Below, one piece after another: positions 695-46,472 of a stretch of DNA of 64,000 nt; the stretch's first letter is position 1, and every line of letters starts with the position of its first letter. A program made the position numbers and the translations under genes. Source of the DNA: Omnitrophica WOR_2 bacterium RIFOXYA2_FULL_38_17 (GTDB taxonomy: Bacteria; Omnitrophota; Gorgyraeia; Zapsychrales; Zapsychraceae); contig MHHG01000057.1 in the NCBI GenBank assembly GCA_001805965.1, forward strand, positions 13,514 through 77,513, read 5' to 3'. The notes under the pieces are model-generated. The model saw only the letters and a program-made list of their open reading frames with translations. It ran no database searches and had not been told where the DNA came from.

Positions 695-851
695 ATAAAT
701 CTCTCCTGTTAAATTAAGATATTTTCTTATAAATAACTCCTGCTTTTTCCTCGACAGGCAACAAGCCGTTCTCTTTGTATACTTTCTTTGCGATAATCCC
801 TTCTTGTCCTTTTCTTACTTTCCGCATTAGACATTTTAATATTAATCTTAT

Positions 852-1463
852 CTAAGCAGGATCGTCACATTTAGCAGGAACTTTATCTAGCAAGTCATGT
901 TCACTAATCTCTTTTTTTATTAGGTGTACGCCGCTTTCACTTATACTGCTCACATCCTCGATCGTATAAAAAGCATTTGGATTATATTGTTTAACCATAT
1001 CTACCAACCATGAAATTTCTGAACGTCTAACGATTATATATATAATATCAACCTTTCCGCTGAGGCCTTCTCCTTCTACCCTGGTCACTCCATAACCCTT
1101 ATTCTGTAAATATTCTATCAACCTGGAAGCTTTCTTACGTGTAATTATGCGAAGGATCTGGAACCCGATAGCCAATTTTTCTTCAATGATCATTCCCACA
1201 TACGTTCCCGTAGCAAACCCTCCTGCGAATCCTATATAACACAAAGGGTTCGATAGGTTCATTATGATCTGCCTAAAGGCAAATAACCATATGAGAACTT
1301 GAAAAAAACCGATCAGAGGGGCTATAAATTTCTTGTTCCTGGAAAGAAGCATTATACGCAATGTATCCATTGAAACATCACAGATCCTCGCCAAGAAGAT
1401 AAACATCGGCAACAAAAACCACTGATAAAACATGCTATTGTTATGAAATAACTCCATCATCAA
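852..1463 (-). CDS. UPF0316/DUF2179 (YitT-like) membrane protein
   Basis: N-terminal transmembrane helices followed by a C-terminal DUF2179-like region (GYGVTRVEGEGLSGK…IIYIIVRRSEI). Confidence 0.5.
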   Translation of the reverse strand: MMMELFHNNSMFYQWFLLPMFIFLARICDVSMDTLRIMLLSRNKKFIAPLIGFFQVLIWLFAFRQIIMNLSNPLCYIGFAGGFATGTYVGMIIEEKLAIGFQILRIITRKKASRLIEYLQNKGYGVTRVEGEGLSGKVDIIYIIVRRSEISWLVDMVKQYNPNAFYTIEDVSSISESGVHLIKKEISEHDLLDKVPAKCDDPA

Positions 1464-38001: not shown

Positions 38002-38424
38002 TTAGTCATTTTTGTGCTCTTCAACGAACTTCATACATGCCTTTGCTATATCCTTGATGGATATCATTCCTATCAATTTATTATCATCAACTACAGGAAC
38101 ATGCCGGAAATTAAGCCCGCTCATCATATGATATACATCAAAAATTGATGTGCCAGAAGTAACCGTTGAAGGATGTATTGTCATAACCTCTTTCACATGA
38201 ACCTTTTCAAGATTCAAACTTTCAGGGACAACTCGCCTTAGAACATCCCTTTCAGTAAAAATACCGACGATTTCATCCTTATCATTACAAACAGCCATCG
38301 CGCCAATATTCCTGACAAACAGTTCTTTTATAGCCTCCATAATAGTGACCTCTTGCGATATCTTCCCCACCCTTTTTGCCATTATATCGCCAGCTGTTAA
38401 TGCTGATATTTTTTTTGCTAACAT
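38002..38424 (-). CDS. CBS domain-pair protein
   Basis: Two CBS motifs in 140 aa. Confidence 0.8.
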   Translation of the reverse strand: MLAKKISALTAGDIMAKRVGKISQEVTIMEAIKELFVRNIGAMAVCNDKDEIVGIFTERDVLRRVVPESLNLEKVHVKEVMTIHPSTVTSGTSIFDVYHMMSGLNFRHVPVVDDNKLIGMISIKDIAKACMKFVEEHKND

Positions 38425-38585
38425 TATCCCCCCCCTTGATTACATATTACCAAATTTTATTTCAACATAACAAACAATGCTAAATATTTCAGTTTTCTTT
38501 TCTTTGATTTACAATACATCGTAGCTATCACATAAATCAAGGATAATTAGCTTTTTTGTGCCGCAAGGAAACAAAATAATAAATA

Positions 38586-38627
38586 AAAAGGCCGCTCATT
38601 TAAATGACCGGCCTATTTATTCCGTTG
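38586..38627 (-). terminator. intrinsic terminator (GGCCGGUCAUUUAAAUGAGCGGCC + U-run) in the riboswitch-1 leader, just upstream of the CBS gene
   Basis: An 11-bp stem with one mismatch, then UUUUUAUUUAUUAUUUU on the minus strand. Confidence 0.6.
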
Positions 38628-38744
38628 GGGTCTTGCGGTGGAATTCCAGGGACTAACACAAACTTAATAAATAATTTTGCGCTAGTCCCTGGGGCAATAA
38701 CAGTCCGTCGCTCGGGGGCGGTTGGCAACGGTGCTATTGATCAT

Positions 38745-38795
38745 AATAAAAAAGACCTGTCCCTTATAAAAAGAGACAAGTCTTTTTCAGTAAAA
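38745..38795 (-). terminator. intrinsic terminator immediately 3' of riboswitch-1 aptamer (expression platform)
   Basis: GACUUGUCUC…GGGACAGGUC hairpin followed by UUUUUUAUUAU on the minus strand. An A-run on the other side makes it look bidirectional. Confidence 0.55.
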
Positions 38796-38814
38796 ATATC
38801 TACGCCTTTTTTTC

Positions 38815-38900
38815 GATTCGGCAACTGGCTATCCATTTCTTTGGACCCTTTAGCTTTGCGTCCCTGGGTTGCCCCAGGTTTGCCATTTTCGTCGTTATGC
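38815..38900 (-). promoter_or_regulatory. GEMM-I (c-di-GMP class I) riboswitch aptamer, copy 1
   Basis: Minus-strand RNA reads …AAAAUGGCAAACC-UGGGGCAACCCAGG-GACGCAAAGCUAAAGGGUCC…GGAUAGCCAGUUGCCGAA. P1 is GGCAAAC/GUUGCC. P2 is capped by a GCAA (GNRA) tetraloop. The GGGACGCAAAGC core is conserved. Confidence 0.7.
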
Positions 38901-38968
38901 CCCCTACTAGTTAAGTATATAACACATATAGTAAACTAGCAAATAAGGAGCGTTTATTCCTTTATAAA

Positions 38969-42059: not shown

Positions 42060-42145
42060 TTTTCGGCAACTGGCTATCCATGTCTCAGGACCCTTTAGCT
42101 TTGCGTCCCCGGGTTACCCCGAGTTTGCCTTTATCGTTTATGCCC
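42060..42145 (-). promoter_or_regulatory. GEMM-I (c-di-GMP class I) riboswitch aptamer, copy 2
   Basis: Minus-strand RNA reads …CGAUAAAGGCAAAC-UCGGGGUAACCCGGG-GACGCAAAGCUAAAGGGUCCUGAGACAUGGAUAGCCAGUUGCCGAA. P2 has a GUAA tetraloop. Near-identical to copy 1 in the conserved cores. Confidence 0.75.
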
Positions 42146-42347
42146 CCACTTGCACAAACAAAAAAAAGAGGCTAATTCTTTTTTAAGAATCCGCCCCTCT
42201 TTTTCTCAAGTATAGAACGTAAAAAACAAAAATGCAAATTTCTTTCAAAAATATTCTTAAAACACATAACGTTCATTGAACTTTAAGATAAAGCCCCTTA
42301 TATAAATAAGGGGCCTTATCTTGGATCATGATTGTTATACAAAATTC

Positions 42348-46095: not shown

Positions 46096-46246
46096 AGCAT
46101 TCTCCTTTTATACATAATAATTTCAAAAGCTATAACCCCTTCACTGGTCATTAACAATTGAAATTGAAACTTCAATCAGTATATTCTATATATTCACAAG
46201 TATATTAGCAATCGCTATTTATGTACTTTGGTCAAGATCAAATGGC

Positions 46247-46286
46247 AAAAAAAATACCCCTAGGTCCCTAGAGGTTATTTTTTTTA
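46247..46286 (-). terminator. intrinsic (bidirectional-looking) terminator between element 3 and the 216-aa gene
   Basis: A8, hairpin ACCCCUAGG/CCUAGAGGU, then T8. On the minus strand the hairpin is followed by U8. Confidence 0.5.
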
Positions 46287-46290
46287 AATT

Positions 46291-46472
46291 AAGCCGATAA
46301 AGATGGGATCTGTGTCCCACCGCACTTCGGCAACTCAGCCACCATATCGCCCGTCAACCGCGCTCATTATCTTTATTTGCCCCATAACTTCAGTGGGCCT
46401 TCCCGGTCTTAAACGACTTCAGGTCTGTAGTTTTGTGCCCTCGGGTTTCCCGGAGTTTACCTTTATCGGCTT
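46291..46472 (-). promoter_or_regulatory. divergent GEMM-like riboswitch element, copy 3 (expanded P3, altered core)
   Basis: Enclosed by a 12-bp helix AAGCCGAUAAAG/CUUUAUCGGCUU. It contains CGAUAAAGGUAAAC, a GAAA-capped hairpin, GGGCACAAAAC in place of GGGACGCAAAGC, and the 3' GCUGAGUUGCCGAA. Confidence 0.4.

Follow-up and report, generated by a model that had tools for sequence, protein, structure and literature searches.

A c-di-GMP-I-type riboswitch in Omnitrophota is followed by a conserved two-hairpin RNA module and a second terminator, and may gate a small RNA

Introduction

To our knowledge, few riboswitches gate a non-coding RNA instead of an mRNA; the best studied are the B12-controlled EutX and Rli55. 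EutX of Enterococcus faecalis and Rli55 of Listeria monocytogenes are reportedly small RNAs gated by AdoCbl riboswitches. An ANTAR target consists of two adjacent hairpins with 6-nt loops bearing A1 and G4, the second of which overlaps a terminator. The Omnitrophota are an uncultured phylum of very small cells, in which regulation is almost unknown. For c-di-GMP, the cases of a riboswitch gating a non-coding RNA are few and poorly understood, namely merRNA (PMC3627812) and the antitoxin RNAs of Clostridioides difficile (PMC11477304). In the latter organism, c-di-GMP-I riboswitches are tabulated upstream of RCd11 and RCd12, which serve as antisense antitoxins in type I toxin-antitoxin systems, and one riboswitch is an orphan (PMC11477304). 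The merRNA of Bdellovibrio bacteriovorus is a massively expressed non-coding RNA that contains a c-di-GMP riboswitch and has been proposed to serve as a c-di-GMP sponge (PMC3627812). SreA and SreB of Listeria, as summarised in PMC3627812 from Loh et al. 2009, are terminated riboswitch RNAs that act in trans.

We analysed an Omnitrophota locus in a 64-kb stretch of DNA (the whole of which is referred to as the window), in which a c-di-GMP-I-type aptamer is followed by a terminator (T1), a module made up of two hairpins (hpA and hpB) and a single-stranded tail, and a second terminator (T2). Because a conserved two-hairpin RNA and a second terminator come next, the c-di-GMP switch most likely controls a small non-coding RNA rather than the next gene directly; that the locus gives rise to a self-contained transcript of ~330 nt, gated by the riboswitch and finishing at T2, has in our judgement about an even chance of being correct.

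The layout predicted here from sequence (own promoter, T1, conserved non-coding module, T2) resembles that of EutX and Rli55, in that the riboswitch and an intrinsic terminator would choose between a short and a long RNA, the module being present only in the long form, and in that the transcript would start at a promoter and finish at a terminator of its own and would not be the 5' UTR of a coding gene. Unlike in EutX and Rli55, the ligand would be c-di-GMP instead of B12, and the module has no ANTAR dual-hexaloop site, the hpA loop being 10-12 nt long, the hpB loop 5-7 nt long, AU-only and variable, and T2 not being overlapped. As in C. difficile, the same aptamer class stands in front of a non-coding RNA and not an ORF; unlike in C. 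difficile, no toxin ORF lies opposite the module, where the antisense ORF is without coding signature, and the module has no sequence relationship to the C. difficile RNAs. Like merRNA, the locus would have a c-di-GMP-I riboswitch within a stand-alone non-coding RNA of several hundred nucleotides, with no conserved ORF directly downstream; whereas merRNA is defined by its expression, the RNA predicted here would carry a regulated terminator in its interior, followed by a conserved module. Two terminators in series are also a feature of tandem c-di-GMP-I and heterologous tandem riboswitches (PMC9481103). Unlike in the known tandems, the second element in the window is not a recognisable aptamer, having neither a c-di-GMP aptamer nor any Rfam match, and in one relative (L010) a copy of the module follows each pair of aptamer and terminator, an arrangement not described for known tandems. 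As with SreA and SreB, a riboswitch-derived RNA may base-pair in trans; their effector is the short terminated riboswitch, whereas the candidate effector here lies downstream of the regulated terminator.

Results

We found that riboswitch copy 1 contains a c-di-GMP-I-type aptamer at 38816-38893 on the minus strand, matching RF03167 (c-di-GMP-I-GGC; gathering score 59) with 67.6 bits and E=8e-14, in agreement with the original prediction of an aptamer at 38815-38900; copy 2, in the same window, matches this family with 64.8 bits. A match above the gathering score places the aptamer in the c-di-GMP-I clan (CL00126; RF01051), and two weaker overlapping matches from the same clan, presumably those of RF01051 to copies 1 and 2, also exceeded their own gathering scores but were suppressed by clan competition. 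The ligand-contact positions in the alignments are G, A and C (in GGCAAAC, GACGCAAAGC and UGCCGAA), the A being located after GACGC in GACGCAAAGC. We take these to be the equivalents of G20, A47 and C92 in the Vc2 aptamer (crystal-structure numbering). The middle-contact G of the GGC variant, whose definition we inferred from the Rfam model consensus (GACGCGAAG in RF03167), is absent, the aptamers here and in the relatives reading GACGCAAAG. Because of this mismatch, the aptamers were not classed as GGC variants, despite scoring best with that model; the copy-1 aptamer is of the standard c-di-GMP-sensing riboswitch class, and is predicted to bind that ligand.

A consensus scan located a promoter-like site upstream of the aptamer (38914-38942, minus strand; TTGCTA-17 nt-TATACT), and TTGC[TC]A...TATACT was likewise found in the sequences of the relatives L014 and L010; the riboswitch transcript is predicted to start near 38907. 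Just upstream of aptamer stem P1 lies a 5' G-run, GGGGGC (38899-38904, minus strand), which, as seen in the sequence and the alignments, is kept in both riboswitch copies (1 and 2) as well as in the relatives, and may be part of the expression platform. This run is complementary to GCCCCC of the hpA loop; its duplex with the loop reaches -16 kcal/mol, compared with -9 kcal/mol when it is paired to the T1 5' arm.

The first terminator had been placed at 38745-38795 and was recovered as a hairpin and U-tract at 38745-38788 (minus strand). T1, the expression platform of the riboswitch, has an 18-19 bp stem flanked by an A-tract and a U-tract (-23 kcal/mol), and is kept in five copies with three compensatory pairs. 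It starts 27 nt past the aptamer and has U6 after the stem, as expected of a terminating riboswitch, in which a stable GC-containing hairpin with a U-tract lies within ~50 nt of the aptamer. In truncated folds of the window sequence, the 5' G-run paired with the 5' arm of T1, whereas in the folds of L014 and L010 the same run paired instead with the 3' strand of the aptamer, and no single conserved antiterminator linking the aptamer state to T1 was identified in the folds of these three sequences.

The second terminator, T2 (38578-38621, minus strand), is formed by the stem GGCCGGUCAUU/AAUGAGCGGCC, A/U-extended at its base, and by the tract U5AU3AUU (-19.3 kcal/mol), the hairpin occupying 38582-38621 and the U-tract running down to 38578. 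It is kept in all four lineages. The "perfect" terminator announced at 38586-38627 is real, but its stem contains one G.G mismatch. We found no antiterminator competing with T2 and no alternative pairing that would regulate it, and in the RNAalifold consensus T2 and the module hairpins fold independently; T2 is apparently strong and unregulated, and is likely the predicted 3' end of the long transcript.

Between the two terminators lies the structured module (38622-38744, minus strand). Hairpin hpA (38695-38739, minus strand) is a stem of 16 bp closed by a C-rich loop, AACCGCCCCC(G) (38714-38723), that does not vary among the copies; 97.5% of cells are paired, a single pair has changed in a compensatory way (C-G to U-A), and three other changes are one-sided but compatible. 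This hairpin, which precedes hpB, went unmentioned in the original prediction. Hairpin hpB (38646-38692, minus strand) consists of an 8-bp and a 10-bp stem separated by a 3x3 internal loop and capped by an AU-rich apical loop, both loops being variable, and has two compensatory pairs (G-C to A-U and A-U to G-C); several G-U pairs are present, which place the fold in the minus-strand RNA. The 10-bp hairpin CCAGGGACUA...UAGUCCCUGG noticed earlier is real, but it is in fact part of this interrupted hairpin of ~18 bp. The single-stranded tail (38622-38645, minus strand) is variable in its first half and conserved in its second half, CCCCAACGGAAU(AAA), in alignment A2; it carries two GGA motifs and a second C-run, and no consensus pairing was predicted in it.

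Compared with shuffled sequences, the minus-strand leader as a whole (z=-10.3) and the module (z=-8.1) are far more stably folded. Five colinear copies of the module, from four related Omnitrophota lineages, align without indels, and the consensus has 50 pairs, with 97.4% of cells paired compared with about 40% when the partner columns were slid. Since the homologues, at ~77-87% identity, all come from one narrow clade, the covariation evidence comprises only three compensatory pairs, a number reached by only 3 of 500 shuffles; many one-sided changes pass through G-U pairs, fitting a minus-strand RNA. Variable columns numbered 0 of 12 in the hpA loop, an invariance that is not statistically significant by itself, and 0 of 15 in the distal tail, while the hpB loops and the proximal tail vary freely. 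The segment, which might have shown neither conservation nor covariation in homologous leaders, shows both, and, because its own fold is preserved through compensatory changes, we consider that the module is under purifying selection for a two-hairpin fold, as judged from the alignments.

Rfam searches of 38380-38960 at E<=10 gave only the aptamer as significant, and no family matched 38578-38744 beyond generic hairpin and terminator noise; matches to Thr_leader, rliE, PyrG, PyrR and mir were rejected, being sub-threshold and fitting terminators or hairpins. The hpA-hpB module represents a previously undescribed RNA motif, the arrangement around it being of a known type. We also rejected competition of the hpB arms with aptamer stem P2, with which they have the strings CCAGGGAC/CCUGGG in common, because the A-U to G-C change in hpB occurs while the aptamer stays A/U, and because unit B of L010 has a different P2 (CCUACC/GGUAGG) and the same hpB.

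In L010, the block of aptamer, T1, hpA and hpB is tandemly duplicated, giving a true tandem in which one c-di-GMP-I-type aptamer follows another and a separate terminator serves each. The fold is maintained in both copies of the module, through compensating substitutions that differ between them, and the internal copy is conserved yet has neither tail nor T2. At riboswitch copy 2 of the window, by comparison, the terminator ends ~30 nt before a start codon with the ribosome-binding site between them, so the module is no generic feature of these switches. The module is single-copy: nhmmer with a module profile revealed no further copy in the window or the related loci, and the one related genome gave one match. 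Riboswitch, module and T2 are 100% identical in nine population contigs of the window lineage. We scanned public collections with the pattern GCCAACCGCCCCCG-N9-13-GTTATTGC. In the genomes, L014 was the sole true homologue, and a match in a Bacillota ABC-transporter gene (L013) was due to chance, as were the single metagenome match, in a GC-rich coding region (L012), and all eight viral matches. The absence from the metagenome scan counts for little, because the scan missed L001, a contig known to carry the locus. The leader is wholly absent from the more distant methyltransferase homologues L015, L016 and L017.

The structured segment had been described as part of the ~150 nt before the gene for a CBS-domain protein. 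It does not directly adjoin this gene, because another ~155 nt intervene between T2 and the CBS start codon at 38424. Within this stretch, a promoter-like block (38511-38540, minus strand; TTGATT-18 nt-TATTGT) is conserved in four lineages, in which CTTGATTT and GATGTAT are the sole invariant blocks of an otherwise variable spacer; CTTGATTT-N-GATGTAT is positioned as -35 and -10 elements, with the start codon of the methyltransferase about 30 nt further on, and with TATTGT as the -10 element and an 18-nt spacer the promoter would be of moderate quality only. The block is likely an independent promoter of the downstream genes, a function predicted from its composition and position. In the relatives it is followed by a methyltransferase operon (methyltransferase, 95-aa membrane protein and CBS gene), whereas in the window lineage the first two genes (the methyltransferase and the 95-aa ORF) have been deleted and the CBS gene alone is left. 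The deletion is marked by a remnant at 38456-38480 (minus strand), representing the 3' end of a SAM-dependent methyltransferase gene, which was identified by BLAST of the leader against the relatives and by alignment. The first intact downstream gene is that for the CBS-domain protein (38002-38424, minus strand; 140 aa; PF00571), with a G8 run at 38428-38435 as its ribosome-binding site; homologues of this protein were found at 53-54% identity. Riboswitch, module and T2 have been retained in the window lineage despite the loss of the two genes behind the block. Riboswitch and downstream genes are on the same strand and adjacent in every lineage, as cis regulation likewise predicts.

On the opposite strand, a 111-aa ORF (38604-38939, plus strand) has no Pfam match. 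Its substitutions are spread evenly across codon positions (e.g. 7/10/14 and 15/10/15) and relatives have frameshifting 1-nt indels in it, supporting the earlier view that it is spurious. Gene callers have annotated a spurious ORF of 111-123 aa antisense to the riboswitch RNA in public assemblies.

Discussion

We propose that the Omnitrophota locus would be a transcription unit of ~330 nt with its own promoter, in which the c-di-GMP-I aptamer and T1 would decide whether polymerase stops after ~160 nt or reads on. Read-through would add the non-coding module, with the invariant C-rich loop of hpA, hpB and the C-rich, GGA-containing tail, and transcription would then finish at T2; since polymerase that passes T1 would make the module and then stop, c-di-GMP would control whether a structured small RNA is made. 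For the genes downstream, transcription would probably start from their own conserved promoter behind T2. The module would most likely act through its conserved single-stranded C-rich stretches, which could pair with G-rich RNA, such as the 5' GGGGGC run of the riboswitch or G-rich ribosome-binding sites, or alternatively could bind a protein.

Any trans-acting role is conjectural. When the hpA loop and the tail were searched by RNAduplex against the 64-kb window, the best matches were in coding regions, and we report no trans target because none of them was at a start codon; the sole complementarities noticed, post hoc, were G/C runs of 5-7 bp. A regex search found no Hfq, CsrA, GGDEF or EAL signatures in the window, a result that concerns the window only and is uninformative for the rest of the genome. 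We put forward only tentatively, as a possibility that we would not favour on balance, that the module is an undescribed c-di-GMP-switched regulatory RNA pairing in trans with the GGGGGC run or G-rich ribosome-binding sites, or else an orphan-riboswitch two-input gate. Pairing in trans, if true, would constitute an RNA-level feedback, or a relay spreading the second-messenger signal.

The data may also be explained by a two-input cis attenuator, in which the riboswitch promoter would feed the operon past T1, controlled by c-di-GMP, and then past T2, controlled by the module, so that hpA, hpB and the tail would act as a second sensor, for a ligand, a protein or an RNA, in a tandem logic gate. 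An aptamer and terminator, a structured RNA and terminator and then same-strand genes make up the layout of heterologous tandem riboswitches (PMC9481103), the module is conserved and structured, and the riboswitch is linked to the same operon in all lineages. However, the two-tier attenuator that the original prediction entertained is now less likely, given that alternative pairing between module and T2 was not found, the consensus showing them to be independent, and that a conserved -35/-10-like block stands between T2 and the genes; in addition, the module has two separate long hairpins and no multi-helix junction with a conserved core, and the internal module of L010 is conserved without the T2 that it would have to control. 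We regard this explanation as unlikely, though deserving of attention. Improbable, in our view, is a stand-alone riboswitch RNA or c-di-GMP sponge, in which the aptamer would be functional and the hairpins and T2 would only stabilise the RNA or insulate its folding, a reading that overlaps with the gated small RNA but assigns no sequence-specific role to the module. Such a reading would agree with the self-contained unit having its own promoter and terminator, with the precedent of Bdellovibrio merRNA (PMC3627812) and with the stabilisation typically provided by long stable hairpins and a strong 3' terminator; but the short form terminated at T1 already has the aptamer, so a stabiliser downstream of T1 would gain little, and the other loops drift but the hpA loop and the distal tail do not vary, suggesting sequence-specific recognition.

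Three further explanations bear on the nature of the module itself. The original prediction had seen in it a degenerate copy of the aptamer core and suggested a decayed tandem aptamer, that is, a relic of a tandem c-di-GMP-I riboswitch, the commonest tandem type (PMC9481103), of which T2 survives. Two hairpins with a terminator loosely mirror an aptamer with a terminator, and one exact 9-mer, CCCAGGGAC, is common to module and aptamer; but the local alignment was matched by 88 of 1000 dinucleotide shuffles and so lay within chance expectation, the relatives read CCCGGGGAC and then ACACAGGC or UCACAAAU at this site without keeping the 9-mer, and the c-di-GMP models did not match the module even at E<=10. 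No homology to the aptamer was detected, compensatory changes keep the fold for which the module itself is selected, and the real tandem of L010 has the module twice besides its two aptamers, so that a decayed aptamer is largely refuted and very improbable. We attach a similarly slight probability to leader-peptide attenuation, in which the position of a ribosome on a short ORF would set T2. The predicted 20-codon ATG ORF (38682-38744, minus strand; 20-26 codons among the copies, MINS.VANRPR.T.CYC..) does exist, overlapping hpA and hpB; it is open in 5/5 copies, and half of its variable columns (6 of 12) fall on third codon positions. We judge it to be non-coding, and not a leader peptide: its ATG lies inside the T1 U-tract, is not preceded by a Shine-Dalgarno sequence and is replaced by TTG in L018; the stop is not fixed in position, so that lengths of 20 to 26 codons occur; the amino-acid replacements (T/A/P, D/V, R/G) are non-conservative; there is no regulatory codon run; and the ORF finishes inside hpB, 60-75 nt before T2. 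Moreover, its nucleotide changes are those preserving RNA pairing, the third-position changes being exactly those that keep the hpA pairs. The least probable explanation is that the palindromes function in DNA and not in RNA, as operator or recombination sites or as a mobile-element relic. Although hpA and hpB do form long inverted repeats upstream of a putative promoter, their pairing is kept via G-U wobbles, which would be mismatched in duplex DNA and in RNA from the opposite strand, the arm sequences drift while pairing stays, and the module is single-copy and lies between two terminators on the riboswitch strand.

For annotation, the locus is a caution that the target of a riboswitch is not necessarily the next gene. 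The cis two-gate explanation, if true instead of a gated small RNA, would make the module a candidate new class of orphan regulatory RNA. If the c-di-GMP-gated small RNA is true, a new structured RNA motif that Rfam lacks would be gained, together with a clear hypothesis on when it is made, and signalling from a second messenger to a small RNA would extend to the Omnitrophota.

Aptamers of the c-di-GMP-I clan

Rfam searches located aptamers of the c-di-GMP-I clan at 38816-38893 on the minus strand (copy 1; 67.6 bits, E=8e-14) and at 42061-42138 (copy 2), the top model for both being the "GGC" variant, RF03167. The aptamer alignment showed GACGCAAAG in place of the RF03167 consensus GACGCGAAG, both copies having A, not G, at the variant-defining position; the three ligand-contact positions are therefore G/A/C, as in ordinary c-di-GMP-I aptamers. 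Judging from this alignment, we treat the copy 1 aptamer as a putative c-di-GMP sensor of the standard kind, built on a GGC-like scaffold; automated annotation would wrongly label both copies as GGC variants. Directly 5' of aptamer stem P1, and outside the Rfam model, a GGGGGC run (38899-38904 in copy 1 and 42142-42147 in copy 2, minus strand) followed by AUAA(A)CGA is kept in both copies and in all relatives. Since its partner in the folds is either the 5' arm of the first terminator (T1) or the aptamer 3' strand GCCAGUUGC, this run may be part of the expression platform.

The layout of copy 2 is ordinary: about 30 nt, including the ribosome-binding site, separate the end of its terminator from the start codon. 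At the start of its leader, between a promoter-like site and the aptamer, is a conserved hairpin, GAGGGGCGGAUUCUU...GAAUUAGCCUCU, with a U-run after it (window ~42160-42200, minus strand; in relatives, L019:668-700, L010:800-846 and L023:~155-195); it resembles a terminator, or a stabiliser of the 5' end, ahead of the riboswitch. A third aptamer of the clan (46326-46471, minus strand) matches RF01051 at 57 bits, with 64 nt inserted into its second hairpin. In this region (46183-46471, minus strand), a terminator (46256-46275) comes after the aptamer, and an AT-rich spacer of ~160 nt, containing a promoter-like TTGCTA-17-TAGAAT, then leads to the next ORF; the aptamer may be another riboswitch detached from its apparent gene.

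Structure and conservation of the copy 1 leader

The copy 1 leader, on the minus strand throughout, has a promoter-like site, TTGCTA-17-TATACT (38942-38914), 5' of the aptamer. T1 (38745-38788, -23 kcal/mol) starts 27 nt 3' of the aptamer and combines a hairpin of 18-19 bp with a U6 tract. The 167-nt stretch 3' of T1 folds into four parts: hairpin hpA (38695-38739, 16 bp, loop AACCGCCCCC), hairpin hpB (38646-38692), an unpaired C-rich tail (38622-38645) and a second terminator, T2 (38578-38621, -19.3 kcal/mol). Folding is much more stable than for shuffled sequence, at z=-10.3 for the whole leader and z=-8.1 for the module alone (hpA, hpB and tail). The original prediction of an aptamer, two terminators and a second structured segment is thus borne out by the Rfam match and the stable folds and was, if anything, understated; hpA is an additional hairpin before hpB. 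The predicted 10-bp hairpin CCAGGGACUA/UAGUCCCUGG is present as hpB, but is really about 18 bp long with an internal loop, and T2, described as perfect, contains one G.G mismatch.

The exact protein of the CBS gene, the first intact gene 3' of T2, was found in many groundwater metagenome contigs and two GenBank MAGs, and a neighbouring protein was annotated from Omnitrophica WOR_2 bacterium GWF2_38_59. In nine population contigs the leader was identical to that of the window save for the length of the G tract in the CBS ribosome-binding site. This site is a G8 homopolymer (38428-38435, minus strand), G9 in three of these contigs (L001, L003 and L009), the sole difference across the 541-nt leader; the cause could be strand slippage that alters the distance from SD to ATG, or else noise from assembly. 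Only this lineage has the tract; the relatives have GGAGGA instead. Three further lineages, all in one narrow clade, were reached through homologues of flanking proteins: L014, from a Candidatus Omnitrophota MAG, whose leader is the same as in L019-L022; L010, from a Logan assembly; and L018, which overlaps L011. Common to all is the synteny of DUF1318, riboswitch 2 with an NHL-repeat protein and a Cys-rich lipoprotein, and riboswitch 1, in that order. Scans of public collections were exact-pattern searches, and negatives from the metagenome-collection scan are weak, since it missed a JGI contig (L001; 3300025081, Ga0208953_1000188) known to contain the pattern.

Five module copies from the four lineages aligned without any indel, and RNAalifold recovered hpA, hpB and T2. 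Over 50 pairs, 97.4% of cells were standard pairs, versus about 40% with partner columns slid. Double compensatory changes occurred at three pairs (C-G to U-A in hpA; G-C to A-U and A-U to G-C in hpB), a number matched by just 3 of 500 column shuffles, and T1 also covaries, with three compensatory pairs. At least eight more one-sided changes pass through G-U pairs, which are tolerated in minus-strand RNA and not in duplex DNA or antisense RNA, making a DNA-level element extremely unlikely. In unpaired regions, no column varies in the hpA loop or the distal tail CCCCAACGGAAUAAA, but changes do occur in the hpB loops and proximal tail; with few, closely related sequences, this contrast is suggestive rather than significant. 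The second segment is therefore conserved and covarying, and the module is a conserved two-hairpin RNA, not previously described, between T1, putatively regulated by c-di-GMP, and T2.

Decayed aptamer and coding alternatives

The original prediction had offered a decayed tandem aptamer, a two-tier attenuator or a small leader peptide as possible readings of the second segment; the first and the last of these should be replaced. Likeness to the aptamer comes down to a single common 9-mer, CCCAGGGAC; the local alignment of aptamer and module was equalled or bettered by 88 of 1000 dinucleotide shuffles, no c-di-GMP model in Rfam matched the module at E<=10, and in the relatives CCCGGGGAC stands at this site, the sequence after it being unrelated. 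Descent of the module from an aptamer is accordingly very improbable. Equally hard to credit is a leader peptide encoded by the 20-codon ORF (38682-38744, minus strand), which starts within the T1 U-tract without a Shine-Dalgarno sequence. L018 has TTG in place of its ATG, its stop codon shifts so that the length varies from 20 to 26 codons, and its replacements include T/A/P, D/V and R/G; seven of the 12 variable columns lie in stems, where all but one keep pairing. On the plus strand, the 111-aa ORF (38604-38939; equivalent at 845-1216, minus strand, in L014, and also in L021 and L022), rightly called spurious, has substitutions spread evenly over codon positions and 1-nt indels in relatives. 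We judge both ORFs to be non-coding. Public gene calls for several assemblies include a hypothetical protein of 111-123 aa on the strand opposite the riboswitch and module, and its removal from annotations is advisable.

Tandem units and the region 3' of T2

The L010 leader has the order aptamer A, T1, hpA, hpB, 10 nt, aptamer B, T1', hpA', hpB', tail and T2, so the module is duplicated along with the rest of the unit, and every substitution that distinguishes its two copies preserves pairing. Among tandem riboswitches, those of the c-di-GMP-I class are the most frequent, with 347 doublets (PMC9481103), and are described without an extra conserved module, whereas in L010 a module follows each terminator. 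Aptamer B contains a 42-nt insertion between GGGAC and GCAAAGC (L010:4506-4547) and the L018 aptamer a 51-nt insertion at the same place (L018:13-63). Both insertions are structured and lie at the junction of the two aptamer hairpins, beside a ligand-contact position, and Rfam gave only split, sub-threshold matches for these aptamers.

Between T2 and the CBS start (38424) lie ~155 nt more of AT-rich sequence. Across the four lineages, the spacer after T2 varies throughout apart from two blocks that never change, CTTGATTT and GATGTAT, arranged as TTGATT-18-TAT(T/C)(G/C)T about 30 nt 5' of a SAM-dependent methyltransferase start codon. In relatives, the operon comprises the methyltransferase, a 95-aa membrane ORF and the CBS gene, the first two lying between leader and CBS (L014:1337-2342, L010:4933-5937 and L018:403-1122). 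Both have been deleted in the window lineage, where nothing but the final ~25 nt of the methyltransferase gene is left (38456-38480, minus strand); despite this deletion, the riboswitch, module, T2 and promoter-like block are intact.

A probable riboswitch-gated small RNA

The module might be a second sensor controlling T2, in a two-input cis attenuator. A search of the module for sequence competing with either T2 arm found none, which speaks against such an attenuator and leaves it doubtful. A role as sponge or stabiliser is less probable still. The invariant C-rich hpA loop exactly complements the conserved GGGGGC run that borders copies 1 and 2 on the 5' side, with a duplex energy of -16 kcal/mol, and its CCGCCCC is complementary to GGGGCGG of the copy 2 5' hairpin; both are short G/C matches picked out post hoc, and with all partners invariant, covariation has no bearing on them.

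The simplest interpretation is an independent transcription unit, which would consist of a promoter, a c-di-GMP aptamer, the regulated T1, the non-coding module and a constitutive T2. c-di-GMP would set whether a ~160-nt or a ~330-nt RNA is made, and genes 3' of T2 would depend chiefly on a promoter of their own. Truncated folds gave candidate antiterminators that differ between lineages, and c-di-GMP might turn the switch either on or off. The B12-gated small RNAs EutX and Rli55 are built in the same way, from a promoter, riboswitch, regulated terminator, non-coding module and final terminator. For c-di-GMP-I riboswitches, cases in front of non-coding RNAs have been listed in C. difficile (PMC11477304), and one lies inside the Bdellovibrio merRNA (PMC3627812). 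The module is a new motif within a known type of arrangement, and the locus is most likely a riboswitch-gated small RNA.
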